Shown in pieces: positions 17,334 through 52,539 of a DNA stretch of 64,000 nt. The translations under genes were made by a program, and so were the position numbers. Each line of letters starts with the position of its first letter. Within the stretch, counting starts at the first letter, position 1. The notes under the pieces are model-generated. The model saw only the letters and a list, made by a program, of their open reading frames with translations, had not been told where the DNA came from and made no database searches. Source of the DNA: an uncultured Patescibacteria group bacterium (GTDB lineage: Bacteria; Patescibacteriota; Microgenomatia; UBA10105; UBA927); assembly GCA_937921305.1 (NCBI GenBank), contig CAKZSU010000003.1, positions 116,599 to 180,598 on the forward strand, written 5' to 3'.

Positions 17334-18503
17334 TTATCGTCTCCTTGTTTGTTTTTCTATGCTCCCAACCATAATCCAAACCAATACAAGTATCCACGGG
17401 TACAACATGCTGTTGTTAAAGAAACTATGAAGCAAAATCGAGACGAACGCGGAAATTATAGCGTATGCAGTTATGTCTTGTATCAATAGAACAATCCGAA
17501 CAATATGAAATACAAGATACAGAAACAATGAAAATCCCACGATTCCTGTTGTTACAAAAATGACCATTAAACTGCTATTCAAACCTCCGGCGTCTCGAGA
17601 AATAATTCCATCCATGTCAAGCATTCGTTCTCGCGTGGCGTGAAATCGCAACATGTTATACCCAATCCCAAAGATTGGCGCGATCCTCGCGGCGGCGACG
17701 CTTTTTGTATAGCTCTCTATCCGCGCCAACGTTGAATCTGACCGAAGCAATCGATTAGTATCCACGCCGTACGACGGAATCAACGCGTAAATAATGCCAG
17801 CAAAGATAAGAATGCCAAGCAAGAAAAATTTTCTTGTACACAACACAAAGACAATCAACGCCCCGATAAACGCGACAAAAGAACTTCGAGAATGCGTTAA
17901 CATAATCGAAACAAGCACAATACCCTGCATGACAAACCATGTGAATGATGATTTTTTTGCCACATACGACAATCCAAAAAAAAATGAAACGACCAGAAAT
18001 AATCCAGCAAAATTTGGATCAAGAAATGTTGAAAACAATCGATAATAATGTTCATCCCATCCTCGATCAAGAAAACTTCGAAGACTTGGAAAGAATACGT
18101 ATTGAACGATCCCAATAATCGCGAATGCAACGCCAACAAGATAGATACTTCGTCTCCAAATAATCGGAGATATATGGTCATTTACAACGACGATATACAA
18201 CCCAAAATACATCAGAAATCGCCAAAGATATAATGAACCCAGAAGTAATTGAACATGCGAAAATCCCCCAATGTTTAATAACAAAGAAACACATGCCGCG
18301 GAGGCGAAATATATCATCGGACGGATAAGATCTCCCTTTATTGAAACAATCTTTTTACGACGAATGGTCCGAAACAAAAAGAACAAAAGCATTAACAATA
18401 TAACGACATCATGCAGAAACACGCGAACACCGGGAGTGATATCAATTCCCCCAAATTGCCCAAGCAATAACGCGATGTACAGTGCGATATGCAAAATATT
18501 CAT
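17334..18503 (-). CDS. O-antigen ligase / Wzy-like polytopic membrane protein
   Basis: 389 aa with ~10-12 TM helices and a central loop, at the start of the glycosyltransferase locus. Assignment by architecture only. Confidence 0.45.
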   Translation of the reverse strand: MNILHIALYIALLLGQFGGIDITPGVRVFLHDVVILLMLLFFLFRTIRRKKIVSIKGDLIRPMIYFASAACVSLLLNIGGFSHVQLLLGSLYLWRFLMYFGLYIVVVNDHISPIIWRRSIYLVGVAFAIIGIVQYVFFPSLRSFLDRGWDEHYYRLFSTFLDPNFAGLFLVVSFFFGLSYVAKKSSFTWFVMQGIVLVSIMLTHSRSSFVAFIGALIVFVLCTRKFFLLGILIFAGIIYALIPSYGVDTNRLLRSDSTLARIESYTKSVAAARIAPIFGIGYNMLRFHATRERMLDMDGIISRDAGGLNSSLMVIFVTTGIVGFSLFLYLVFHIVRIVLLIQDITAYAIISAFVSILLHSFFNNSMLYPWILVLVWIMVGSIEKQTRRR

Positions 18504-28723: not shown

Positions 28724-29503
28724 TCAAGCAGAATACGGATGCCTCCCAAATCTTCTGAGAAGATAATCACGAATCCCCGCCAACGCTCCCCATTCTCTCA
28801 GAGTTACATGCTCAAGAATTGTTTTTGGAAAACGAAGCGTCTCATATATTTTCACAGAAAACGGAGCATTTCGTTCAATAAACAGCAAGTGATTTCTTGC
28901 AAGATAGTATTGATGAAGAAATGGCTTGTTTTGAAATGTCGACGACTCTTTGTGACGGACATCAGACAAGGGAACAACATGAAGAGGAAACCCCTTCTTT
29001 CTTGCTCTTATACAATACTCAACTTCTTCATAAAAAATAAAATAGGGATCATACAAATAGCCAATTGAACTAATAACATCTCGATGAATCGCAAGAAATG
29101 AACCTGACAAAAATTGCATAGGCTCTGGATCTGTTTCCGCCGTCCATCGTTTTGGATCCAATGATCGAGGATATGAACCGGCAAGACCAGGAGAACATCG
29201 AGAAAGAAACTGAATAAATGAATGAACAACATGTTTCGTCATCTGCACATCATCATTCAAGACAACCATCCATTCATATTTATGCGTGTACACATATCTT
29301 AATCCGCGATTTACTCCTCCTGTGTACCCCTTATTCTCTTTATTGGGAAGATAGATCACATGGTCAATCGAGATAGTTTTTTTTGGTGTGTTATCAACAA
29401 GAATAACCGTATGTGGACACAACGAATCGACCAACGATCGAATCTTTGCTTGATCAGGAAAATAGGTGAGGATGATAAACGCTATATCAAGTGATGTTTC
29501 CAT
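28724..29503 (-). CDS. family 2 glycosyltransferase
   Basis: The internal ATG (METSLDIAFIILTYFPD...) fits a GT2 N-terminus; the longer listed ORF overlaps the epimerase. The C-terminal part is typical GT2. Confidence 0.7.
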   Translation of the reverse strand: METSLDIAFIILTYFPDQAKIRSLVDSLCPHTVILVDNTPKKTISIDHVIYLPNKENKGYTGGVNRGLRYVYTHKYEWMVVLNDDVQMTKHVVHSFIQFLSRCSPGLAGSYPRSLDPKRWTAETDPEPMQFLSGSFLAIHRDVISSIGYLYDPYFIFYEEVEYCIRARKKGFPLHVVPLSDVRHKESSTFQNKPFLHQYYLARNHLLFIERNAPFSVKIYETLRFPKTILEHVTLREWGALAGIRDYLLRRFGRHPYSA

Positions 29504-30498
29504 GTTTCCGGAACTAAATCGTTTTCCAACTCCAACGGAATATATGAGAATAACTTTGGTCCTTGCGTTTTTACCCATGCGATTGTTTCCCGTATGCCGT
29601 CTGTTAATGAAGTCGAAGGACGATAGCCAAGCATCATTCTTGCTTTTGTGATATCGCAATACGCGGAGACAATTTCTCTCGGACGAAACGGAACATACAC
29701 AGGTTCAAATTCCTTAGGAACATCTCCGTCAAACCATGACGAGAGGATCAATAAAGAAAGTTCGTTTAATGTATGCGGCTTGTCTGATCCAATATTAAAC
29801 ACTTCTTGTTTATATTCATCAGATAATCCAGCTTTCACGACGGGAGGAATAAGATCATAAATGTAGGTAAACGCTCGTTTTTGGGCTCCATCTCCATAAA
29901 TGTAATATGGCTTTCCTTGAGATAATCGATTTAGAAAAATCGCAACAACATTTCTATAAGGATCGCTCATGTTTTGCCGTGGACCGTAAACATTATAAGG
30001 ACGAATAATTACATAGGAGAACCCATGAACAGTTGACAATATCCGCGTAACATCCTCCATTGAAGATTTCATCACACCATACACATCTTCCGGTCGTTTC
30101 TCCATCTTTTCTGAAAATGGCGGTGTTTGCGCGCCATAAACGCTGATACTGCTAAATAGAATTACTTTTTGGATACCATGTTTTACACAGGGAACAAGCG
30201 TGTAAAGATATGCTAAATAATTATTTTCAGATGATGATAATGGGGTAAATTGACTTCTTCCTTCAGTCGCATCTGCAGCGAGATGAAAAAGAATCTCTGG
30301 TTTAACTTGTTGTATATAAGTAGCGACAGCATCTTTATTTCTCAAATCAAGATTTGTAAATCGACATTCTTTGTGAATATACGTTTCTTGTCCTCCCGAA
30401 AGATTGTCCACGCCGTATACTTCATCATGATTCGCGATAAGCGCGTCGACGAGATGACTGCCTATAAACCCCGCCGCACCAGTAACAAGAATTTTCAT
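29482..30498 (-). CDS. NAD-dependent nucleotide-sugar epimerase/dehydratase (SDR family)
   Basis: MKILVTGAAGFIGSHLVDAL Rossmann motif and a YxxxK-type SDR core. Confidence 0.85.
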   Translation of the reverse strand: MKILVTGAAGFIGSHLVDALIANHDEVYGVDNLSGGQETYIHKECRFTNLDLRNKDAVATYIQQVKPEILFHLAADATEGRSQFTPLSSSENNYLAYLYTLVPCVKHGIQKVILFSSISVYGAQTPPFSEKMEKRPEDVYGVMKSSMEDVTRILSTVHGFSYVIIRPYNVYGPRQNMSDPYRNVVAIFLNRLSQGKPYYIYGDGAQKRAFTYIYDLIPPVVKAGLSDEYKQEVFNIGSDKPHTLNELSLLILSSWFDGDVPKEFEPVYVPFRPREIVSAYCDITKARMMLGYRPSTSLTDGIRETIAWVKTQGPKLFSYIPLELENDLVPETWKHHLI

Positions 30499-30529: not shown

Positions 30530-31336
30530 TCATTTTATAAAGTTTCTATGTATTATTTTAAAAAAAGCAAAGAAATAAATCGAAGATATATATAAAGAGA
30601 AAATAACATGAGCCCTAAAACCTGCCCAACCATCAAGAAAACCTTTACCCCTGAAATAACCACTAAAAAATAGTGAAATGAATTTCGTTAATCCTAAGTA
30701 AAGAAGCCTTAATAAATTAACTTCTTTTTTTGCTAATTCATCTCCTTCAATTTGAATATAAGTTAAAAAATTTTTAAAGTCTAAAAATCTTGCATACTTG
30801 GAGTTTCTTGAAAAATGCAGTATATCTAAGTTTTTATATGCTGTTAGATTATCGGGAATATCTATATGAGGATGTATTGGATTATAGAAATAATAACCTA
30901 TATTTTGAAATAGTCTTAATTGAAAATCTGGATAAAATAAACCATATCTAAAATACTTGCCTTTTCTATAATAATTTCTTCTTGAAAACCAATAACCTAA
31001 TATATTATTGTTTTTTATTAATTTAGGAGTTTCTTTTATTAAATCTTCACTCAATGACTCATCTGAGTCTAAAAAAAATATCCAGTTATACTTCGCATTC
31101 TTCAATCCAATATTTCTTAATTCAGAGTGATTTAATTTAGTATCAACCTTTATTATTCTTATTTTAGAGTTACTTTTTAAATTTGATGATAATATTCCTA
31201 TAGTACCTAAGCTTTGAACTATTATTATTTCACTACAGAAATTCATAAGAGATTTTATTGAATTTTCAGTTAAAAGATCATACACGTGAGTAATAATTAT
31301 TCCTGTTATTTTTTTTTCATGAATTTTTTTATACAT
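30530..31336 (-). CDS. family 2 glycosyltransferase in a strongly AT-rich segment
   Basis: GT2-like N-terminal half (IIITHVYDL...FFLDSDES). Local GC is far below the window average. Confidence 0.6.
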   Translation of the reverse strand: MYKKIHEKKITGIIITHVYDLLTENSIKSLMNFCSEIIIVQSLGTIGILSSNLKSNSKIRIIKVDTKLNHSELRNIGLKNAKYNWIFFLDSDESLSEDLIKETPKLIKNNNILGYWFSRRNYYRKGKYFRYGLFYPDFQLRLFQNIGYYFYNPIHPHIDIPDNLTAYKNLDILHFSRNSKYARFLDFKNFLTYIQIEGDELAKKEVNLLRLLYLGLTKFISLFFSGYFRGKGFLDGWAGFRAHVIFSLYISSIYFFAFFKIIHRNFIK

Positions 31337-34616: not shown

Positions 34617-34665
34617 ACGACGATGCTGATAGACAATACTTTTTTGGCAGGCTTCATAGATTGTG

Positions 34666-34739
34666 TGGACTTGAGAGGATTCGAACCTCTGACCTTTGCA
34701 ATGTCAATGCAACGCTCTAACCAACTGAGCTACAAGTCC
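34666..34739 (-). tRNA. tRNA-Val (anticodon GAC)
   Basis: The reverse complement gives acceptor GGACTTG/CAAGTCC, D-arm GCTCAGTTGGTTAGAGC, anticodon stem TTGCA/TGCAA with loop TTGACAT, and T-arm AGAGGTTCGAATCCTCT. Confidence 0.8.
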
Positions 34740-42828: not shown

Positions 42829-45800
42829 TTATTCTCTGACAAAGAGTATAAAAAACAACGAAACAGGGAGCAATCCAAATCCTATCCACTGCAACAATTG
42901 CGGAAGAAAAAATAAAATGATTGTTCTTTGCTTTGAAGAGGGCGAAAGCTCCCACCCATTCGCCCAATTATTGACAAGCACATGATTTCGTAACGGTTTT
43001 CCAAAAAGAAACGGAATCATCCTCCCCAACGATGAATCAATTTCATATGCTTTCCATCCCGAGTGAAATGATTGATATAACGCAAGAATTCCTTTCTCCT
43101 CTTGCGGAACGAGAGAAACAACATAATATGTTGGATAAGGATGAAATACATCAGGGGCAACAAATGTATGAGGAACAAATTCTCTCTTTTCTTCTTTTTG
43201 CACCATCAAACCCATCATCCATAAATAAGGGATTTGATGAACAACAACACGATGCAATTCATTTCTTGTTTGCTCATTACCAATAGAAAGATTATCAAAG
43301 TTAATCGTATATCCAAAGCTATATGGTTCTTGCGGTGGGATCACAAAGTGATTCGTAAAAATATCTTTTGCTGATTGAGGTTCTAAATAGGTGTCATAGA
43401 GCAATCGTTTTGTTTGGTGATTTGTAATTGAGATAATCAACGGTAAATTTTCTATATGCTTTGAATCAACAGTAACCACATATCCCTGTCGTTGCAGAAG
43501 AAATGGAAGAAAAAAATCAATACAATTGCTTGAATGAAGACTCGTTAGCGTAAGAACATTTCGTTGTTTCTCTTTTCTTACCTCTTGCATCTTTACTCCA
43601 TCATTAAATGCATCGCATGTTTTCGGTTCTCGAATAAAATTATTCCACGCGTCGCTATTGTAGCTATACAATCCATATACTTTCGGCACATGAACAACAA
43701 TCCGATCACTCAATCCATCGATAAGCATCGTCGCTCCTTTTGTTGCAGTGTCAAAAGAAAGATCAATCACTTTCTCACCATAGACAATACGAGGAAAAGA
43801 ACGATACGTAATTCTATCGTCATCAATCGTAAGCAATGAATCATGATCAAATGGAGGAATCGTCATCACCCCACGAATATCCTTTGAAAGAGATGCTGAA
43901 AATTCGTAACCCTGATCATATTCTTGAATAGTTATCATTCGATCTTGAATCATTTTCCCAGTGAACAAAGAACGAAATGGAAAATATATATCTGGATAAC
44001 CTGTCGATGTTTTATATGGACCAATCATCTCAAACGCCTTATCGATATCCATCGTAATCGCTTTTGGCTGAACTTCCGGAAGTGAAGTAACAAAAGAAAC
44101 ATGCTGATTTGCGCGTTCAGGTCGAACAATACGATAGATATGAATCGATCCAAAGACGCTCTGCTTCTCAAAACGATCATCTTTCACATCTCCATTCAAC
44201 AATTTCTCAAGTGTGAACGATCCAGATTCTTTATCGTGTAACACGATGTTTGTATCTATGAGTAGCCAATCAATCGCGTATTTCCGCAACACTCCATGAA
44301 ATCGATCAATCGAACCCTCCGCCAACGCTTGCGTGCTTTCCCAATAAAAATTTTCGTTATGATAACTCCACGGATCGAATGCGCGATCCATAATCGGCTG
44401 AGGAATACCAAACCATTGAAACCCAGACCCGATCACCCCCCAGCGATACTGCGTCCACGCCCAATACCAAGGAGCTGGAAAAACAGCAATGCGTTGATCA
44501 TATCGTTGCTCTTGAAAAAAACGAAACATATCAAAATATTCCCGAGGAATCGCTACACGAAGATTGCTATGTAAAAAGTGTCCTTGAAACGATGGAAGTG
44601 TTAAAAGGAAAAGTAACACGCTAACAACTGCATGAGCAGCAACAACTATTAATTTTCTTTTTTCAATAAACTGAAAGAAAAACAACAATCCAATTCCAAA
44701 CAACAACGAGAATACCAAACTATACGAGATAAAAAATTTTGTATATACAAATCGAAAGATAATATGAACAAGAGGAAACAACGATCGAATCGCAGTATTT
44801 GCTTGCTCAATCAACGGGATATTATTCCCAATAACAAATAAACTAATAAAAAACCAAAGAACAAGAGGAACACCAGAACTTTGTCGCTTAATCACAACGC
44901 TACCTATCCCTACTATAACAATGCCAAAAACTATCCATCCAATCGGTTCATACCATATCTGAGATAGATGCTCCCGCCATGGCTTCATCATGTAATCAAC
45001 TACTCCTGTAGTATGATCAAGCTGCACAAACTCCAAACTAAAACTCTTTAACAGCGCAAAACTTCTCACATCTCCATATTCATGATTTTTTAAATAAATC
45101 TCATGACTTGCTCGCTGATTATTTTTCGAATTTGCAATGATATGGGCGTTATGTATTGTAGAAGCAATATACGGAAGCCCCCAAAACGCATTTGCAAAAC
45201 ATATTAAGAATATACTGACGAAAACTGGCTTTGGAGATCGTTTTGCTGAAATATGATGAAAAAGGAATACAAAAACAAACATGGTATATACAATAAACAC
45301 TGTTGGGACATGCGCCATCGGCGTAGCAAGAAATGATATAAGAAGAAAGAAAAACGACCGCTTCACGGAAATACGATCCAACAAAAGCGCAAGCCCAAAC
45401 AAAAGCCAAGGCAACCATCCAAAATAAGCGATAAACGGCTCAAAAGGAAGATAAAACATCTGCACAGTTGCAAAATTATATTGATATACTAACGCTGATA
45501 ATGCACCAACAGACCGAACAAATTCTTTTTGTGGATGATTTCGAAATAAAAAAGAGAAAAGAATATAGACTCCTATCCCACCAAATGCATGCATGGAAAA
45601 AATAAAGACATATCGAAGGAGATGGTGGGGGAAAAATAGGGACAACAAAAATATATAAACATAATGAACAACATTTGCAGCGTGCGACATTCCATCCTCT
45701 AAACCAAGTCCTCGATACTCTTGCCAAACACTGGTCAACGCACGAATGATATTAAGGGAAAAATGAAATTCAGGAAAATTATTATCCCACCCAACAACAT

Positions 45801-45915
45801 ATGTTCCGGAAAGATAGTTCTGAACAAATAGCGTGAGGCTTAAAAAGATGATAATAAAAAAAGGGCAATACCGAATAATTACCCTCTGAAGAAATCTCTT
45901 CATCAATTTAAGCAT
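42829..45915 (-). CDS. 1028-aa polytopic membrane protein with large extracytoplasmic C-terminal domain (GT-C-like glycosyltransferase candidate)
   Basis: ~13 N-terminal TM helices (~450 aa) followed by a ~550-aa soluble domain. ATG start. The adjacent GT2 gene supports a glycan-assembly role. Confidence 0.4.
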   Translation of the reverse strand: MLKLMKRFLQRVIIRYCPFFIIIFLSLTLFVQNYLSGTYVVGWDNNFPEFHFSLNIIRALTSVWQEYRGLGLEDGMSHAANVVHYVYIFLLSLFFPHHLLRYVFIFSMHAFGGIGVYILFSFLFRNHPQKEFVRSVGALSALVYQYNFATVQMFYLPFEPFIAYFGWLPWLLFGLALLLDRISVKRSFFFLLISFLATPMAHVPTVFIVYTMFVFVFLFHHISAKRSPKPVFVSIFLICFANAFWGLPYIASTIHNAHIIANSKNNQRASHEIYLKNHEYGDVRSFALLKSFSLEFVQLDHTTGVVDYMMKPWREHLSQIWYEPIGWIVFGIVIVGIGSVVIKRQSSGVPLVLWFFISLFVIGNNIPLIEQANTAIRSLFPLVHIIFRFVYTKFFISYSLVFSLLFGIGLLFFFQFIEKRKLIVVAAHAVVSVLLFLLTLPSFQGHFLHSNLRVAIPREYFDMFRFFQEQRYDQRIAVFPAPWYWAWTQYRWGVIGSGFQWFGIPQPIMDRAFDPWSYHNENFYWESTQALAEGSIDRFHGVLRKYAIDWLLIDTNIVLHDKESGSFTLEKLLNGDVKDDRFEKQSVFGSIHIYRIVRPERANQHVSFVTSLPEVQPKAITMDIDKAFEMIGPYKTSTGYPDIYFPFRSLFTGKMIQDRMITIQEYDQGYEFSASLSKDIRGVMTIPPFDHDSLLTIDDDRITYRSFPRIVYGEKVIDLSFDTATKGATMLIDGLSDRIVVHVPKVYGLYSYNSDAWNNFIREPKTCDAFNDGVKMQEVRKEKQRNVLTLTSLHSSNCIDFFLPFLLQRQGYVVTVDSKHIENLPLIISITNHQTKRLLYDTYLEPQSAKDIFTNHFVIPPQEPYSFGYTINFDNLSIGNEQTRNELHRVVVHQIPYLWMMGLMVQKEEKREFVPHTFVAPDVFHPYPTYYVVSLVPQEEKGILALYQSFHSGWKAYEIDSSLGRMIPFLFGKPLRNHVLVNNWANGWELSPSSKQRTIILFFLPQLLQWIGFGLLPVSLFFILFVRE

Positions 45916-45927
45916 AGCACAGATTTC

Positions 45928-46845
45928 TTATGACTTCTGAACAAGAAACGCGAGAGAACGATGTTCATGGTTCCAAAGTTTCCATTTTATAAGAGACGTC
46001 TTTGCCATTCCGCGAAGAAAAAGATATATTGGAACAATCAATTGTTCCGGCAATAAACCGACAATGACGCATTGAACGGCAAGCACTATCCATGCACGCA
46101 AGGACATCCGATACTGAAATTTTTGTATCGCGGAAAGTCTAATTCGGACAGAGTTCCAAAACTTCTTTTTTGGTTCTTGTAGCGAAGCATTTTTACCGTG
46201 GACGCGATACGCGATCAATTTCTCGGGTAGATTATGAAACAATCCGATGTGAAGAAACCTAAAAAATGTGTAGTAATCGTCGTTCACATCCCAAACCATT
46301 TCATAAATTTTTCTTTTCCGTGGAAGAAACGATCGGCGAATCATCACCGACGGATGAACAATCGGGTGAAGAATACCATACTGTTCATAAATCGCGTCAT
46401 GGTTGATTGGAAATCGTTTTTCCCCAATAATTGTTCCATTTTTATCGATAATATCCGCTTGTGTTCCTAAAACAAATACATCCGGATGGCTCGTCATGTA
46501 GGTTACTTGTCGCTCGATGCGTTCCGGGTAGGATACATCGTCCGCATCCATCCTTGCGATAAACTCGCCTCGAGCAAATTGAACGCCATAGTTCATTGCG
46601 CCGTTGCCCGCGGCGTTTGTTATTCGCTTTGTACGAACCGCGCGAATTTTTTTAGGAAATCGTCTCGCGTAGTCTTGAAGAATCTCCCACGACCGATCTG
46701 TCGAACGATCATCAACGAGAATAATCTCTACATTTGGATATGTTTGACGCAAGAGACTGTCAATAGCTTCCGCGACATACGCTTCTGCGTTATGCACCGG
46801 CATAATCACAGAAACAAGCGGTAATATATTTGTAATAGTTTTCAT
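45928..46845 (-). CDS. family 2 glycosyltransferase with C-terminal TM segment
   Basis: VSVIMPVHNAEAYVAEAIDSLL...ILVDDRSTD...ARMDADD. The ATG at 46845 is preferred over the listed TTG. Confidence 0.8.
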   Translation of the reverse strand: MKTITNILPLVSVIMPVHNAEAYVAEAIDSLLRQTYPNVEIILVDDRSTDRSWEILQDYARRFPKKIRAVRTKRITNAAGNGAMNYGVQFARGEFIARMDADDVSYPERIERQVTYMTSHPDVFVLGTQADIIDKNGTIIGEKRFPINHDAIYEQYGILHPIVHPSVMIRRSFLPRKRKIYEMVWDVNDDYYTFFRFLHIGLFHNLPEKLIAYRVHGKNASLQEPKKKFWNSVRIRLSAIQKFQYRMSLRAWIVLAVQCVIVGLLPEQLIVPIYLFLRGMAKTSLIKWKLWNHEHRSLAFLVQKS

Positions 46846-47039
46846 ACTATATATGTCATACAAACTTTTACTATTTCCTCCATATTCAACGCATTGAATA
46901 CAGAGGAAAAACGAGAACGCAAAAAGAAGAAGACAACAAAAAAAACGTAGATCCTATGCAGCATAGAGCATAGGCACGTCTTCCATTTGCTTCTCTTGCT
47001 TACGTTTTTCCACAATAACGACCGGGAAGTCACTGTACT

Positions 47040-47099
47040 GCCTTATCTGCAGACGCGGATATCGATATTTTTATCGAAACCCACTGCGCTTTATCGCAG
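47040..47099 (+). repeat. left copy of an imperfect direct repeat bounding the GC-rich island
   Basis: GCCTTATCTGC...GCGCTTTATCGCAG. It matches the right copy GCCTTATCTGCGCTTTGCAG (48751-48770) apart from a 35-nt internal insertion with its own small palindrome. Confidence 0.35.
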
Positions 47100-47146
47100 A
47101 ATATTCAGCCTTGGTGACTCCCAGCCGCGTTTGCTATGATGCTACC

Positions 47147-47836
47147 CTATTCGGGCAGCTTCGCGAAGGAGAATCCGGATGCGTTGCCGCGGTTGCAGCG
47201 GACAAAGATCCACGATTCGCCCTTTCCGAGCGTCTCTTCGACGCGGAGCGATAGAATGTTTGCTCGATCAACGAGCAACGTGCCGGTGTCGAAGGGGTGC
47301 TTCCCATCGTAGTTGTGAAACACCATGCACTCAGGGCCCACAAATCTGTAATGCCCTGGATGCAATGTTAGAGCAACCTCATGCGCCTCCCTACCTGGGA
47401 AGGGGAGGCACGGCTGGTACCACCAGCCGTTCGGCTGCAAGTCAGAATAGCCGGACTGCAACGGGTCGTAAACGACCAGATAGTCATTGTGGCCATTGAC
47501 CCCGTTGACCGTCGCGTAAAACACCTGCCCCCCATTAAGGACAGGTACGACCCTGCCGTTCGAGCAGGTTACCTGCCGCGTCGGCTCCGCCACGTTGGGG
47601 GTGGTAGGTTCGGGAGTAGCCGTGACCACCACAACGTTGGGCGTTGTAGGTTCGGGAGTAGCCGTGACCACCACAACGTTGGGCGTGAGGGTGGGGTTAG
47701 GCAGGGTAGGGGTGGAAATGGCGCTCTGCGCCATCTCGCCGATGGTCTGCCCCTGCTGGAACTGAGGCGAGCAAGCAGCGACTACAAGCACTGCTACCAT
47801 ACAAACCAGGAAAACCAGGATTCGTGTGGGTTTCAT
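47147..47836 (-). CDS. lipoprotein with tandem Pro/Thr-rich repeat and Cys/Trp/Gly-rich C-terminal domain (GC-rich island)
   Basis: RBS GGAGAGGGG then ATG (MKPTRILVFLVCMVAVLVVAAC with a VAAC lipobox). Two 14-aa repeats (TPNVVVVTATPEPT). No known domain. GC is well above the window average. Confidence 0.6.
   Translation of the reverse strand: MKPTRILVFLVCMVAVLVVAACSPQFQQGQTIGEMAQSAISTPTLPNPTLTPNVVVVTATPEPTTPNVVVVTATPEPTTPNVAEPTRQVTCSNGRVVPVLNGGQVFYATVNGVNGHNDYLVVYDPLQSGYSDLQPNGWWYQPCLPFPGREAHEVALTLHPGHYRFVGPECMVFHNYDGKHPFDTGTLLVDRANILSLRVEETLGKGESWIFVRCNRGNASGFSFAKLPE
47604..47687. repeat. 42-bp tandem direct repeat (2 copies plus partial) inside the lipoprotein gene
   Basis: GTAGGTTCGGGAGTAGCCGTGACCACCACAACGTTGGGCGTT at 47604-47645, repeated at 47646-47687. 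Confidence 0.7.
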
Positions 47837-47859
47837 TTTTCCCCTCTCCTTATACTTAC

Positions 47860-48351
47860 TCATGGATTAGACTGTGATTGCGCTTGATTGTGAGTGCTAT
47901 GGTCGCCCTTCTTCTTTGAAAGAGCAACCAAATAGACGATGCCCACCAGCACAAAACCGACGCAGATATTAACGAGTTGTTGAAGAGTCAGCGTCGGTAC
48001 GACAAACATGATAAAACCCGCCATCGCCAATACGGCAATGACGAGTTTGCCAAAGTTCTCGCTCTTCACGAGCGACAGCCTCATACTCTCTGGAATAAAC
48101 CAGGCGAGGATAGCAAACATAGCTCCTCCCCCAAGGACAAGTCCCCACCACGGGTTAGAGGCAACTACTTGCGATGCGTAGAGCGAAAGCAGAGCGGAGC
48201 CAGCAGCAAACTCAGACTTACTGAGGAGCTGTATAGCTTTCTGATCAGTCAACCCTCGGATGAGGTATCCGAGGAATGCCATAACCCCAATGATGGTATA
48301 GATCCACCATTGGGTAGTGAGGTAGTTCATCCACTGCTCGATCATGACCAA
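47860..48351 (-). CDS. hypothetical 4-TM membrane protein (GC-rich island)
   Basis: 163 aa with four hydrophobic helices. Its stop overlaps the upstream region of the lipoprotein gene. Confidence 0.5.
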   Translation of the reverse strand: MVMIEQWMNYLTTQWWIYTIIGVMAFLGYLIRGLTDQKAIQLLSKSEFAAGSALLSLYASQVVASNPWWGLVLGGGAMFAILAWFIPESMRLSLVKSENFGKLVIAVLAMAGFIMFVVPTLTLQQLVNICVGFVLVGIVYLVALSKKKGDHSTHNQAQSQSNP

Positions 48352-48750
48352 TTCCCTTTCTTAAACTACGGATTCTCCCACTCTCTTCCTTATCGGGAGT
48401 AAACCTACGATCGTTCCATACGGAAGAGATTTTATATACCGCTGGGAGTTTGCGCGGTAGACACGCCACTCAGCATGTCTATCTGAGGATGACTAAGAAC
48501 CTCAGGATTTCTATCTCCAAAACCATCACTTCTTTAAGTAAGAATATGGAGACAAAAATCCTGAGGCTAAAGCCTCCTCAAACAAAAAATGACTCATCGC
48601 GACTCATCCCAGCAATTTTAGACGAACCCTTCCTTCGCTCGCCATCTCATCCCCTCGTTTACCGACAATCGCTTTAGCGATAAGAGATGCCACCCAGATT
48701 ATTGTTTTTGCGTTCTCGTTTGTTAATGTACAATTCTTGGTAACTACTCC

Positions 48751-48770
48751 GCCTTATCTGCGCTTTGCAG
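48751..48770 (+). repeat. right copy of the island-flanking direct repeat (itself a hairpin CTGC-GCTTT-GCAG)
   Basis: See 47040-47099. Confidence 0.35.
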
Positions 48771-49283
48771 AGGGCGAACTAGCGCCAAGGTCTCCGATCT
48801 CCTTCGGAGTAGGCCTGAGGAAATACTCAGGAACATCTTTACTTCTTAAAGAACTAACTATGTTTCCAAACATTTCCTTCTTTTAGCTCTAAAGACGAAG
48901 ATGCGCGCATCCTGCCGAACGCGCACGTCTTTTCCTCAAAAGCAAAGAAAAAACCGACCGTTTCTTATTATCATTTCAAAGAGCTTCTGTTGGTTCGATA
49001 TACAAATAATTTACTATGATTTATCGCTACCGACAGAAAGCAAAGTTTTGGTGAATTATACTATAGGATATAGTAATTGTCAATAAATAAAGAAGAGGAT
49101 GTAGGGGATTTATTCTTCGTTACTTATAAAAATTCTTACGCCTAAAGGTATAAAAAATCATTTTTTCGTTCAAAAATTGTTCGATTAATAAGGCATCACA
49201 GTATTCACTCATTAGACGTTAAACGCATACAAAAAACTTCTCTTTATCAGCAACATATCCATTCATAATAATATGAAAACATA

Positions 49284-49997
49284 TTATTGACGAGCAAAAA
49301 TTATTACAACACCTTCTGGAAATATACTTGTCATAAAATTTGTTGGATCTGACCTTAAAAAAGACGAAACCCTACGAATACCACGTCGATCATTAAATTC
49401 ATTCCAAAATGCTAATCGATTTGGCGGTGCCATGTAATCGCCATCGACAGTAACAATAATGAGACTTTGTGGAGCAATAAAATTATTATCAAGCACATGT
49501 CTGATAGCTTTTGCCCAGCTCTCCTCTCGAGAAAGATCCAAAAAATCTGGAGAGCGAATCAGAAGAACATTTGGAAGCCGATTATGATCACCACGAAGAT
49601 CACCTAATTCAATTTCTTGCCCATACTTTGGAATAACAGAAAATGAAATATTCTGCACAACACCTGGACCCCAAAACATTTCTAACGTTTGCCTATCGGA
49701 TTCAACATGAGGATCAACTCCTACATACCTCACAGGTGGCTTTCTACCATCCGGAAGACGACACAAAGCAATAGAAAATGGATCACGAGGAAGTGTTCCA
49801 CAACCTAAGGAAAAAACATAAAGTGGCAACTGCCCATTATACACATGAGCATCTGGGTGATATATCATAACATGAGCAAAAACAGCAGCAAAATTAGCAT
49901 CCATTTCAGAGAAAAGATTTGTTTTTGGAAAAGAGAGATCCAATTTCCAAGGAGTTCTCTTGGAAAAATCTTCTGGAGAACAAGTTGATTCAGTCAT
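49284..49997 (-). CDS. hypothetical protein, possibly a divergent class I SAM-methyltransferase fold
   Basis: FSLGCGTLPRDPF resembles motif I and YVGVDPH a post-I acidic strand. It lies immediately downstream of ftsZ. Weak call. Confidence 0.3.
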   Translation of the reverse strand: MTESTCSPEDFSKRTPWKLDLSFPKTNLFSEMDANFAAVFAHVMIYHPDAHVYNGQLPLYVFSLGCGTLPRDPFSIALCRLPDGRKPPVRYVGVDPHVESDRQTLEMFWGPGVVQNISFSVIPKYGQEIELGDLRGDHNRLPNVLLIRSPDFLDLSREESWAKAIRHVLDNNFIAPQSLIIVTVDGDYMAPPNRLAFWNEFNDRRGIRRVSSFLRSDPTNFMTSIFPEGVVIIFARQ

Positions 49998-50000
49998 GGT

Positions 50001-51182
50001 TTATCCCCCTCGCTGGCGAAGGAACGCTGGAATATCGAATTCGTCTTCTTCTGGCGGAGTATCGTCTGTTGGCGGAAGCTGGATAGTTTGATTCTGTTGA
50101 TGGGAAAATCCAGAAGACGCTCTCCCTTGCAAAGATGGAGATTGATGATACATCGTCGTTGATGGCGCTGAAAACACCGATTGATTGCTATAGACCGTCC
50201 GTTGGGATAAATCTTTCAGCCGTTTTTTTGTCTCGTCAAAACCTGTCGCGACGACGGTGATTTTCACCTGATCAACCATCGAATCCACAATTGTCGCTCC
50301 AAAAATAATATTCGCGTCTGGATCAACGGCCTGAGCAATCGTCTTCGCGGCTTCATCCACTTCTGCCATCGTCAAATCTGGACCGCCGGTAACATTGAAC
50401 AATACACCTTTTGCTCCCTCCACAGATACTTCCAAAAGCGGAGAAGCGATCGCGGTACGCGCCGCGGTCGCGGCTCGATTCTCCCCAACGCCTGTGCCAA
50501 TTCCCATCAATGCCGATCCGGAATTTGTCATAATCGCCCGAACATCAGCAAAATCTACATTGATCAATCCCGGCATCGTAATAAGATCAGAGATACCCTG
50601 CACACCCTGACCTAATACAGAGTCGGCCACACGAAACGCTTCAAGAAGCGTCATCTTCCGATCAACCACATCAAGGAGTCGTTGATTTGGAATAACAATC
50701 AGCGTATCGACTTTATCTTTGAGGTTTGCAATGCCTTCTTCAGCATTAACCATTCGTCTTGCGCCTTCAAATGCGAATGGCTTTGTGACCACAGCAACAG
50801 TCAACGCGCCAAGTTCTTTCGCGATCTCCGCGACCACCGGCGTAGCGCCAGTTCCTGTACCTCCTCCTTCTCCGCAAGTTAAAAAAACCATGTCCGCGTC
50901 TTTGAGGTGATCTTTGATTTTATCGCGAGATTCCTCCGCAGCCTTAAATCCAATTTCCGGATTTCCTCCCGCGCCGAGCCCACGCGTCAACTGCTCACCT
51001 ATTTGAACTTTTGTGGGGGCTTGCGATGTGAGAAGCGCTTGGGCGTCGGTATTCATCGCGATAAAGTCGACGCCAACAATTTGCGTGACACTAATCATGG
51101 AATTAATCGCGTTTGTTCCTCCGCCGCCAATCCCAACAACTTTTATTTTCGCGAATCGGGCAATATCGGGTTTAATTAACAT
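50001..51182 (-). CDS. ftsZ: cell division GTPase FtsZ
   Basis: Tubulin signature [18 protein letters not shown] and a C-terminal disordered tail. Confidence 0.95.
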
Positions 51183-51213
51183 AGATGTCGTAAATGAGGA
51201 GCAGGTGCTATGG

Positions 51214-52539
51214 TTATGGCAAAAATGACTTTAACAGATTCATGATCTTTCCCGCAAGACCCTTATTGGATCCTTTTTGTCCTCCTTTTCCAAACATTGA
51301 AAAGAAAGATCGTGACTCTTCATTTCGTCTTGCCTGCGCGCCGTAAAGAAGCAACCCAACACTCGTCGCATATGCCGGCGTCATGATTTCATCAATAAGT
51401 CCACGAACACGCATTGGAATACCCACACGAACAGGCATCGCAAGATTTCTTTTCACACAATCAAGAATCCCTACAGTTTCTGCCCCGCCACCAGTTAATA
51501 CCACACCAGACGGTGTCAAACCGCCAAACCCGCTTCGCTTGATTTCCAACGCAACCATGGTAAAAATTTCATTTAATCTCGGTTTGATAATCCCCTCAAC
51601 CAATGTTTTTCTCGATAATTTCTTAATATCTTCCGCAAGATTAAGGTTTGACACATCAAATTCGTCATTGCTCTGCTGCTTCTTCTCATCTTTTCCCGAG
51701 GATGATTGATCTTGCCGATATGGAATCGGAGGAAGCGCTGGCGTTTTTGGCAGTTGACCAAGCTTGAGCTTAATTTTTTCCGCACTTTCCAAAGAGATCC
51801 GAAGCCCAGCGGCAAGATCTTTTGAAATATGAACAGCTCCAATTGGAATCACCGAAGAATACGACAACGCGCCTTCCACAAAAATCGCTACATCTGTGGT
51901 CTCCCCGCCAACATCCACGACAATCGCACCGAGATCTTTCTCCGTGTCTGATAACACCGCCGTTGCAGACGCCAACCCGCTAAACACAAGACCCGCAACA
52001 TCCACGCCCATTTCTTGAACACACTTATGCAAGTTCCGTATTGCGGTAACACCTCCCGTAACAAGATGAGCATCAACTTCAAGACGAATTCCTGTCATCC
52101 CCACAGGATCAACAATGTCTTCTTGCTGATCCACCTTATATCCGCGAGGCAATACATGAAGAATTTCTCGAGACGAAGGAATAGAGACCGCTTTTGCCGC
52201 TTCAATCACACGATTGACATCATGTTCAGTAATTTCTTTATCAGGTTCGGATACCGCCACAACGCCATGCGAATTAATCGACGCAATATGATTTCCGCTA
52301 ATAGAGACATACGCTTCTGGCGCAGAAACGCCAGCCATCCGTTCTGCCGCTTCAAGAGATTGCGCGATTGCTGAGGATGCCTCATCGATATTCACCACTT
52401 GCCCTTTGCGAATACCCCTGCTTGTCACCGTGGAAACACCGACAATATTTGCGTATCCATCTTCTGTTAATGAAGCGATAAGCGTGACGATTTTCGATGT
52501 GCCGATATCAATACTTGAAATAATGTTGTCTCTTGCCAT
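51214..52539 (-). CDS. ftsA: cell division protein FtsA (actin-like ATPase)
   Basis: DIGTSKI N-terminus, actin-fold phosphate motifs ([10 protein letters not shown]) and a position upstream of ftsZ. Confidence 0.9.

Follow-up and report, generated by a model that had tools for sequence, protein, structure and literature searches.

Why should two adjacent genes be far richer in guanine and cytosine (GC) than the chromosome that carries them? The question is raised by a locus in a 64,000-nucleotide (nt) stretch of DNA, hereafter the window, from an uncultured Patescibacteria group bacterium (GenBank assembly GCA_937921305.1, contig CAKZSU010000003.1, positions 116,599 to 180,598 of the forward strand), where the two genes encode a lipoprotein and a small membrane protein. 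An earlier reading of the letters alone (the sequence-only reading) had taken them for a horizontally acquired island that arrived by repeat-mediated or site-specific insertion. We found instead that the feature is a real variable surface-protein cassette in an envelope-glycosylation locus, with the twist that a recurrent GC island coincides with a transcript predicted to be hyper-structured. The explanation that we favor, with a probability of about 45%, is that the GC-richness is maintained together with transcript structure, and that the island is the variable front of the glycosylation locus.

Composition and gene content of the GC-rich island

The window is a chromosome segment of 41% GC (mean 0.414) which contains a dcw/mur cluster, ftsA and ftsZ (50001-52539, minus strand), and genes for isoleucyl-tRNA synthetase (IleRS), ClpB, ParB and polysaccharide functions. 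Over 47001-48000 the GC content of 500-nt segments is 0.54-0.56, the next-highest value elsewhere in the window being 0.50, and between ~47100 and ~48400 it climbs to 0.5-0.65. Two minus-strand genes lie within this interval, and their main features are as follows.

47147-47863, minus strand: lipoprotein gene; the product of 238 amino acids (aa) has a signal peptide ending in a lipobox, then a Pro/Thr/Val-rich linker and a C-terminal beta-sandwich domain
47592-47687, minus strand: 42-base-pair (bp) tandem repeat in 2.3 copies, encoding the 14-aa linker unit TPNVVVVTATPEPT, with a copy number that varies between strains
47150-47578, minus strand: C-terminal domain (C-domain) of the lipoprotein, ~143 aa, with the motifs GWWYQPCLP, GPEC and SGFSFAK
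47860-48351, minus strand: membrane-protein gene, 163 aa, with 4-5 hydrophobic helices and a GC content at third codon positions (GC3) of 0.585

The GC3 of the remaining 56 window genes is 0.368 +/- 0.059, with a maximum of 0.472. Against this background the lipoprotein gene (GC 0.579, GC3 0.703) stands 5.6 standard deviations (SD) above the mean and the membrane-protein gene (GC 0.496) 3.7 SD above it. Codons that are rare in the host are also used by the island (CCC 0.37 versus 0.04, CTC 0.37 versus 0.09 and AGG 0.33 versus 0.07). The island is compositionally foreign to its own genome, and the observation that its GC lies far above the rest of the window, made in the sequence-only reading, is upheld by GC in 500-nt segments and by GC3 alike. 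The elevated stretch extends from ~46900 to ~49000, which is broader than the ~47100-48700 given there. Its description of the genes also proved accurate: the lipoprotein, the 42-bp tandem repeat and the Cys/Trp-rich C-terminal domain are all present, as is the small membrane protein in the open reading frame (ORF) at 47860-48351.

Composition alone might suggest an assembly chimera, in which DNA of a GC-rich organism was joined to this genome. We regard this as having almost no chance of being correct, given that a 565-kb contig from another sample (locus L001 in our numbering of related loci) matches the window at 99.9% identity along 20.7 kb spanning both junctions, that an 89.9-kb contig encodes both the lipoprotein and the large glycosyltransferase described below, and that the same gene order is found in unrelated metagenomes. 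A check for chimeric assembly had been proposed along with the island, and by sequence comparison both junctions are continuous in the second-sample contig. The same lipoprotein is thus encoded on three contigs of 223.6, 565 and 89.9 kb; the window version is identical to protein P0211 of the 223,647-bp contig, and those of the two other contigs (P0001 and P0210) have one 14-aa linker unit fewer. The L001 contig has the island in the same orientation and differs from the window by exactly one 42-bp repeat unit. Of the 17 differences between the two, three are true single-nucleotide polymorphisms located in the island coding sequence (1.2 kb). Each is non-synonymous, one replacing N by D in the lipoprotein and two affecting the membrane protein.

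The C-terminal domain of the lipoprotein defines an unannotated family that is rare and has a jelly-roll beta-sandwich fold. Its lipobox (LVVAAC / MKPTRILVFLVCMVAVLVVAAC), as read from the translation, conforms to the pattern [LVI][ASTVI][GAS]C. Sequence searches of Pfam, NCBIfam and PDB with the lipoprotein returned no match, and it shows no sequence match to any family of S-layer proteins. A word-seeded search recovered 6 proteins of the C-domain family and a profile raised this to 32, while a set of 1.84 billion representatives contained 27 clusters at E<1e-30. The domain had been called unknown and a search with it recommended; it is indeed unannotated in these databases, but relatives do exist in the form of this small family. 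Its members share an architecture consisting of a lipoprotein signal or an N-terminal transmembrane (TM) anchor, a Pro/Thr/Ala-rich linker, which is collagen-like in one of them, and the C-domain. Several relatives have the same N-terminus as the window lipoprotein, and others use the TM anchor. One member, from Ca. Gottesmanbacteria GW2011_GWB1_44_11c, has been automatically annotated as 'Laminin G'. The analysis thus adds for follow-up an unannotated beta-sandwich domain family, as well as a candidate large regulatory RNA (see below).

The membrane protein could alternatively start at an ATG at 48345, giving 161 aa, as called in L001. We detected no significant Pfam or NCBIfam family for the 163-aa protein, and no match to GtrA, SMR or MATE. 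Small multi-TM genes occur at the same position in L007, L013 and L014, with no real similarity detectable between their products and the window protein, and several loci have no such gene.

A conserved glycosylation locus with a variable slot

Downstream of the lipoprotein gene lie two genes that place the island in context.

45928-46863, minus strand: GT2-family glycosyltransferase, 311 aa, with a hydrophobic C-terminal segment (Pfam PF00535, 2.5e-37; GC3 0.40)
42829-45915, minus strand: AftD-like GT-C membrane glycosyltransferase by predicted fold, of 1028 aa, which has a beta-rich region outside the cytoplasm and a helix at the C-terminus (GC3 0.31)

The GT2 is 49-59% identical to the syntenic gene product in every locus that has one. 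Its relatives in PDB include chondroitin synthase, SpsA and DPM synthase, the match to the last (5mlz) covering residues 17-129 only, and it scores below the GtrB, ArnC and DPMS equivalog thresholds (best EpsE with 123 bits against a cut-off of 450, and ArnC with 36 bits). The ~1000-aa protein matched no Pfam family at E<=0.1, and a PDB sequence search with its profile was empty. However, an AlphaFold2 model built from a 41-sequence alignment was confident (predicted local distance difference test score 89.6, predicted template modeling score 0.89), and in a Foldseek search of PDB its top matches were the AftD structures 6w98, 6wby and 6wbx (E 9e-19 to 4e-16; best 8.9e-19), followed by STT3/OST, AftA and PglB. 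These matches show it to be a GT-C fold enzyme, which would use a lipid-linked sugar donor outside the membrane, and the confident model identifies it as an AftD-like GT-C glycosyltransferase. Homologs of the protein score E 0.0012 and 0.1 against PF11847 (GT-C_AftD), under its 26-bit cut-off, and three distant homologs have a precomputed PF11847 hit; since there is no match above the Pfam gathering score, the likeness to AftD holds at the level of fold only. The family comprises at least 138 clusters, and among the few clusters with a source name nearly all are from Patescibacteria (Gottesman-, Levy- and Moranii-bacteria and Microgenomates), with two archaeal-labelled exceptions.

We observed that a C-domain homolog lies directly upstream of a ~300-aa GT2 gene in 10 of the 11 distinct contexts retrieved, namely the window, L003-5, L006, L007 (= L010-12), L008, L009, L013, L014, L015/16 and L017. 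Wherever the contig reaches far enough, the next gene after the GT2 encodes a GT-C-like multi-TM protein of ~1000-1084 aa (the L009 contig stops inside the GT2 gene). The exception is L002, in which the homolog is found beside a TrwB/DUF87 ATPase gene on a contig that also carries PrimPol and ParA genes. Further loci were reached through the GT-C protein rather than through the lipoprotein: in L018 and L019 other anchored, linker-containing proteins fill the slot, whereas L020 is arranged differently, its GT2 and GT-C genes being separated by that of a 547-aa membrane protein and no gene for an anchored protein being found directly upstream of the GT2. A sortase and a CLIPPER-domain protein are often encoded upstream of the module in other loci; these genes, and the TrwB/DUF87 gene that accompanies it elsewhere, are absent from this window. 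The locus is therefore conserved, in that the slot gene is syntenic with GT2 and, where the contig reaches, with GT-C, and the 'island' is best understood as the variable part at the front of this envelope-glycosylation locus. This defines such a locus for Patescibacteria of the Microgenomates type, most of which are uncultured and have poor annotation; no description of it was found in the searchable literature.

Flanking repeats and the question of mobility

The proposal of a mobile island was built on direct repeats at its edges, and we also detected a longer inverted repeat.

47040-47099: left direct repeat, GCCTTATCTGC...GCGCTTTATCGCAG, of which 11 nt are exact; right copy at 48751-48770
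46909-46925: left copy of the 17-nt exact inverted repeat AAACGAGAACGCAAAAA; right copy at 48705-48721

In the sequence-only reading, a small mobile island had been inserted at the GCCTTATCTGC...GCGCTTTGCAG repeats through recombination that was either site-specific or repeat-mediated. The strings do exist at those places, and within the window the exact 11-mer GCCTTATCTGC occurs at 47040 and 48751 only. Their significance is marginal: the BLAST E-value between the flanks is 0.049 for the 11 nt and 0.77 for the second half, CTGCGCTTT, and no comparable repeats flank the homologous genes in L003, L006, L007 and L008. Moreover, both copies fall within predicted RNA hairpins, the right one in the leader and the left one, with its 35-nt 'insertion', in a stem-loop of the spacer downstream of the lipoprotein gene. 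Other expected traces of insertion were likewise not encountered. The statement that integrase and transposase are lacking is borne out, since the island consists of two ORFs without a recombinase domain and its neighbors are the GT2 gene and a gene for a 237-aa protein without a family match. The nearest tRNA gene (34665-34739) is ~12 kb away, so that no tRNA or tmRNA gene is at hand as an insertion target. No empty site was seen, as every GT2/GT-C locus retrieved via the lipoprotein family has the slot occupied, with no close relative of this genome available for comparison. No relatives were found in viral contigs, GenBank phages or PLSDB plasmids, and a blastx comparison of both non-coding flanks with every protein of the family and every ORF in the related loci detected no remnant of a displaced native gene. 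The mobile-island model is thus largely refuted, and we consider it very unlikely; a slot that is filled in 10 of 11 contexts, marginal repeats lying inside hairpins, and the lack of an integrase, transposase or tRNA gene all speak against insertion at this place.

The 17-nt inverted repeat suggests a different arrangement, an invertible phase-variable segment in which the two copies would be recombinase sites, and inversion would uncouple both genes from the upstream promoter. The repeat brackets both genes with an E-value of 1.3e-5, has only two copies in the 64-kb window, and its right copy falls inside a promoter-like site. Yet we noticed no recombinase among the ~20 of the ~58 window proteins that were scanned against Pfam, the second alignable assembly is in the same orientation, and the repeat has no conserved counterpart in the other loci examined. 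In addition, the 17-nt match has a p of only ~0.025 once G-U pairs are allowed. An inverton is hence improbable in our view. The 11-nt direct repeats are not adjacent to the inverted repeat, one lying inside and one outside of it. By its defining features, the island does not qualify as an integrase island, as an insertion sequence, miniature inverted-repeat transposable element or transposon, or, with ~20 of the ~58 window proteins scanned for a recombinase, as an inverton.

Recurrence of the compositional anomaly and exchange of alleles

Given that the slot is occupied in many lineages, we compared the GC3 of the C-domain coding region with that of the neighboring GT2 and GT-C genes in the nine lineages with a full module.

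Window: C-domain 0.72, GT2 0.40, GT-C 0.31
L003: C-domain 0.68, GT2 0.43, GT-C 0.37
L006: C-domain 0.72, GT2 0.29, GT-C 0.30
L008: C-domain 0.75, GT2 0.53, GT-C 0.46
L017: C-domain 0.54, GT2 0.36, GT-C 0.30
L007: C-domain 0.56, GT2 0.45, GT-C 0.39
L014, no excess: C-domain 0.54, GT2 0.49, GT-C 0.47
L016, no excess: C-domain 0.30, GT2 0.27, GT-C 0.29
L013, uniformly 63% GC, no excess: C-domain 0.80, GT2 0.88, GT-C 0.84

The slot gene thus exceeds its neighbors by +0.1 to +0.4 in six of the nine lineages. Phylogenetic trees of the GT2 and GT-C proteins are concordant, with the groups (L008,L017) and (L006,L016) and a clade of L007/L013/L014 together with the window and L003. In contrast, the C-domain tree groups (L006,L007) and (L016,L017) with 100% bootstrap, where GT-C groups (L006,L016) and (L008,L017), also with 100%. 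The C-domains of L006 and L007 are 75% identical, as against 59% for GT2 and 43% for GT-C. Because the slot-gene tree conflicts with those of GT2 and GT-C, alleles or domains must have been exchanged between lineages. The exchange extends to the level of domains, since the N-terminal halves of the L006 and L007 proteins are entirely different, and since two adjacent paralogs in L002 (8445-11953) have an N-terminal anchor and linker that are 55% identical and different C-terminal domains. The L002 paralogs lie directly downstream of the TrwB/DUF87 ATPase gene, and as the contig also encodes PrimPol, AEP-TOTE and ParA proteins, it may be a Patescibacterium plasmid or integrative element that carries surface proteins.

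For the window's own lineage a transfer is not demonstrable from these comparisons. The nearest relatives of its allele are those of L002 (65% identity), L014 (62%) and L003 (60%), about as GT2 and GT-C predict, and these sit in loci of 42-46% GC. At conserved residues, the third positions of any two alleles have an identity of 0.27-0.51, and hence no recent donor is in sight.

These data bear directly on the most serious competing explanation, namely an import that has not yet ameliorated. In this scenario a GC-rich relative (compare L013) or a plasmid-like element donated the leader and both genes, replacing the resident allele by recombination, so that the GC content would be donor composition not yet decayed and the RNA structures ordinary regulatory hairpins. 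The GC3 deviation of +5.6 SD and the host-rare codons are what it predicts, the tree conflict shows that transfers have happened in the C-domain family, and a GC-rich organism with the complete module does exist (L013). Moreover, the closest C-domain (65%, L002) is found beside the TrwB/DUF87 ATPase on the contig that also encodes PrimPol and ParA, the lineages differ by degrees in their GC3 excess, in keeping with amelioration, and all three island polymorphisms between the two strains change an amino acid. Against it, no close donor allele was found among 1.84e9 representative proteins or 5.8e9 clusters, each of the six lineages would require its own unsampled GC-rich donor for the same slot, and GC3 has stayed high even though the third codon positions are nearly saturated in every comparison of alleles. 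Horizontal acquisition as such, as claimed in the sequence-only reading, therefore stands to the extent that the island is compositionally foreign and that the family has moved between lineages (tree conflict at 100% bootstrap). A single recent import is not sufficient, because the anomaly recurs in six of the nine lineages with alleles that are 45-75% identical and tracks excess structure in the mRNA, to which we now turn.

Predicted structure of the transcript

Folding predictions and promoter searches delineated the following elements around the two genes.

49055-49083, minus strand: sigma-70-type promoter-like site TTGACA-17-TATAAT (12/12), with a predicted start near 49048
48698-48726, minus strand: second promoter-like site TTAACA-17-AATAAT, in which the right-hand 17-nt inverted repeat (48705-48721) forms the spacer
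48352-49050, minus strand: non-coding leader of ~700 nt with many long predicted hairpins, one of which holds the right direct repeat
46864-47146, minus strand: structured spacer of 283 nt between the lipoprotein and GT2 genes, with a minimum free energy (MFE) of -107.3 kcal/mol and z of -7.1 (200 shuffles)

The consensus promoter-like site precedes the first island gene by ~700 nt and is embedded in AT-rich DNA (GC 0.27). Just downstream of it GC steps from 0.27 to 0.44, and it drops again at the ribosome-binding site of the GT2 gene. The elevated GC hence matches the predicted transcript in extent, reaching from the promoter of consensus sequence as far as the hairpin at the GT2 ribosome-binding site. 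The 699-nt leader is predicted to be made of many 15-25-bp stems, with an MFE of -250.8 kcal/mol (z -9.8) on the minus strand as compared to -196.7 (z -6.0) for the antisense plus strand. A separate run on the spacer gave z of -10 on the minus strand versus -5.4 on the plus strand. Three parts can be discerned in its predicted fold. The first is a long stem-loop containing the left direct repeat together with the 35-nt 'insertion', and the second a hairpin at 46953-46974 with U8 located 7 nt beyond it. In the third, a 16-bp hairpin at ~46874-46909 (minus strand), the Shine-Dalgarno sequence of the GT2 gene, GGAGG, is paired with UUCCUCU. This last element suggests that translation of the GT2 may be gated by RNA structure or coupled to upstream events. 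By comparison, z ranges from -3.7 to +2.1 in seven other intergenic gaps of the window.

The coding regions follow the same trend when compared with synonymous-codon shuffles. Two runs gave z of -4.9 and -6.3 for the lipoprotein gene and -4.8 and -4.5 for the membrane-protein gene, whereas 15 control genes span +0.7 to -2.9 (12 of them, in one run, averaging -0.5 +/- 1.2 with a minimum of -2.9). Among related loci, the z of the C-domain coding region is -6.4, -4.3, -2.8, -2.5, -2.4 and -1.0 in those with anomalous GC and -1.8, -1.0, -0.9 and -0.2 in those without. Non-coding leaders of 300-700 nt precede the module in all nine lineages, and in seven of these z is between -6 and -12.5. Excess predicted RNA structure is thus shown by the folding models for the leader, both coding regions and the spacer alike. 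At the gathering score, Rfam matched neither leader nor spacer, and its only hits in the window and eight related loci were tRNAs; at E<=1 there were only sub-threshold microRNA or small-RNA models on a hairpin. A conserved long-range pairing between leader and spacer, suggested by the 17-nt inverted repeat, was tried as a candidate in nine loci and rejected as a general feature, being marginal in the window, L008 and L016 only (p 0.025-0.045) and conserved in neither position nor sequence.

The leaders of L007 (3440-3740) and L014 (7420-7640) share a 21-22-bp hairpin and a double hairpin close to the Shine-Dalgarno sequence, at 77-82% identity, as compared to ~50% for the adjacent proteins. 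Between them we counted 2 compensatory and 7 one-sided changes that preserve pairing, 5 of these to G-U, so that pairing is kept on the sense strand only. The motif GAGATAGATGATCTYCGACG is confined to the L007/L014 clade among the loci fetched. On the strength of this alignment, the L007/L014 leader is a candidate for a new cis-regulatory RNA.

What may maintain the GC-richness

Under the explanation that we favor, the island would be one transcription unit made up of the promoter, the ~700-nt structured leader, the membrane protein, the anchored surface protein and the structured spacer. This unit would form the variable front end of the envelope-glycosylation locus, with its GT2 and AftD-like GT-C, in a Gottesmanbacteria-like Patescibacterium, and the slot would hold swappable alleles of surface proteins, with recombination and not an integrase bringing about their replacement. 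The transcript would be selected for being extensively folded, which would keep GC high, in that G and C would be favored at synonymous and non-coding sites against an AT-biased background. The structure in turn could serve mRNA stability, controlled translation or both, including the sequestering of the GT2 ribosome-binding site. The protein with its Pro/Thr-rich linker might be the acceptor of the GT2/GT-C glycan or a partner for it. 

The import scenario ranks below this explanation because it needs six unsampled donors and leaves the excess of structure unpredicted. We noted in this regard that the structure excess of the coding region is found in the GC-anomalous alleles, and that it is weaker in L013, which is natively GC-rich (z of -0.02 for the whole gene and -1.8 for the C-domain). 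For these reasons we hold an un-ameliorated import to be a doubtful, though by no means negligible, account of the island.

Several observations weigh against maintenance by selection on structure, and account for our modest confidence in it. All of the RNA structure is an in silico prediction, and for several leaders the sense and antisense z-scores are close. Synonymous shuffling also breaks up the local clustering of GC-rich codons, so part of the coding z-score could be non-selective. The slot genes of L014, L016 and L013 have no GC3 excess, which means that GC-richness is not intrinsic to the family, and the spread of the excess from 0 to +0.4 is equally expected from staggered imports followed by amelioration. 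Host-rare codons are a classical mark of foreign genes, and they fit poorly with a very highly expressed gene. Finally, the role of the lipoprotein as acceptor or partner of the glycan is purely conjectural.

A further process that could raise GC3 without any selection on RNA is GC-biased gene conversion at a recombination hot spot, where alleles of a surface antigen are frequently exchanged. Exchange is indeed attested by the tree conflict, by domain swapping between the L002 paralogs and by strain-level polymorphism in the repeat and in amino acids. However, the effects reported for bacteria amount to a few percent of GC3, far smaller than the +0.3-0.4 seen here, and an excess of structure relative to synonymous shuffles is not predicted by this process. 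We therefore judge it to be improbable, if somewhat less so than the inverton.

The structural evidence can also be pressed further, to an 'armoured' surface-protein mRNA of an AT-rich, streamlined genome which is structured from wall to wall and thereby keeps local GC high, in which hairpins gate the GT2, which recurs at the orthologous slot of distant lineages, and of which the leader represents a new large class of cis-acting RNA linked to envelope-glycosylation loci. This is possible, but we would not give it an even chance. If it were true, the local GC island would be a signature of selection at the RNA level and not of foreign origin. Since atypical GC is routinely taken as a sign of recent horizontal transfer, a slot that is GC-enriched in six deeply diverged lineages offers a test case for RNA-level selection on composition.

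Relationship to known systems

Three-component systems for extracytoplasmic glycosylation are exemplified by GtrA/GtrB/Gtr-type GT-C in Shigella and Salmonella and by mycobacterial arabinan enzymes such as AftD (PMC11127046). The locus resembles them in that a cytoplasmic GT2 directly adjoins a large GT-C enzyme, which has extracytoplasmic beta-sandwich modules and AftD as its best structural match, and in that some lineages have a small multi-TM protein in the same operon. Of the three components, the GT-C fold is recognizable in the predicted model, no flippase of the GtrA, SMR or MATE type is discernible, and the GT2 falls short of the GtrB, DPM-synthase and ArnC equivalogs. Unlike these systems, the locus adds a dedicated, variable gene for an anchored surface protein.

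In this respect it is reminiscent of the S-layer cassette types of Clostridioides difficile, including the glycosylated SLCT-11 type (PMC6254364), in which a variable surface-protein gene likewise lies by glycosylation genes and alleles are exchanged independently of the flanks. The protein here differs in being a small beta-sandwich protein, anchored as a lipoprotein or by a TM segment, rather than an established S-layer protein, and the exchange would have taken place across deep lineages (45-75% identity) and not between strains. Surface glycoconjugates and variable surface proteins are a likely interface of these episymbionts with hosts and phages. To our knowledge, a persistent GC3 excess at a surface-protein cassette has no counterpart.

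Structured 5' untranslated regions give S-layer mRNAs long half-lives, as in Lactobacillus slpA (PMC10221546), and structure in the coding region raises the functional half-life of mRNAs (PMC6883848). The predicted transcript has in common with slpA-type mRNAs a strong promoter-like site, a long leader rich in stem-loops and structure that continues into the coding region. It differs in its far longer leader (~700 nt) and in a GC3 effect that at +0.3 would be unusually large. Like classical genomic islands and surface-polysaccharide genes of atypical GC, the island is a compositional outlier with envelope functions, but it has no integrase, tRNA gene or credible attachment-site repeats, the slot is filled in other lineages, and the anomaly recurs at the orthologous position.

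Further observations in the window and related loci

A second kind of GC-rich island was seen near the GT2/GT-C module of L020 (Ca. Gottesmanbacteria), at 1383-2057. It encodes an anchored protein of 224 aa in which a Pro/Thr linker is joined to an unrelated Cys/Trp-rich C-domain, has a GC3 of 0.70 versus 0.30-0.38 in its neighbors, and is separated from the module by HicAB toxin-antitoxin genes. Short GC-rich ORFs were also noted a few kb upstream of the module in L008 (518-1057; GC3 0.71) and L017 (2229-3053; GC3 0.60), loci that otherwise have ~0.4 GC. At 6-7 kb downstream of the module, L003 (17379-19532) and L008 (10879-13044) encode a ~720-aa ATPase of the domain architecture DUF8128-DUF87-TrwB_AAD_bind; the two proteins share 48% identity with each other and 35% with that of L002.

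Between ftsZ and the island, the gene at 49284-49997 (minus strand) encodes the 237-aa protein without a family match mentioned above. Its GC3 of 0.21 is the second-lowest among the window genes examined, and the sequence LGCGTLP...VGVD hints at a Rossmann or methyltransferase-like fold. The opposite compositional outlier of the window is another GT2 glycosyltransferase gene, at 30530-31336 (minus strand), with a GC of 0.24 and a GC3 of 0.16 (-3.6 SD). It adjoins genes for an NAD-dependent epimerase and a further GT2 (the neighbors being at 28724-30498 and 17334-18503), with a Wzy_C/O-antigen-ligase-like gene further upstream, and looks like an AT-rich import of polysaccharide genes.

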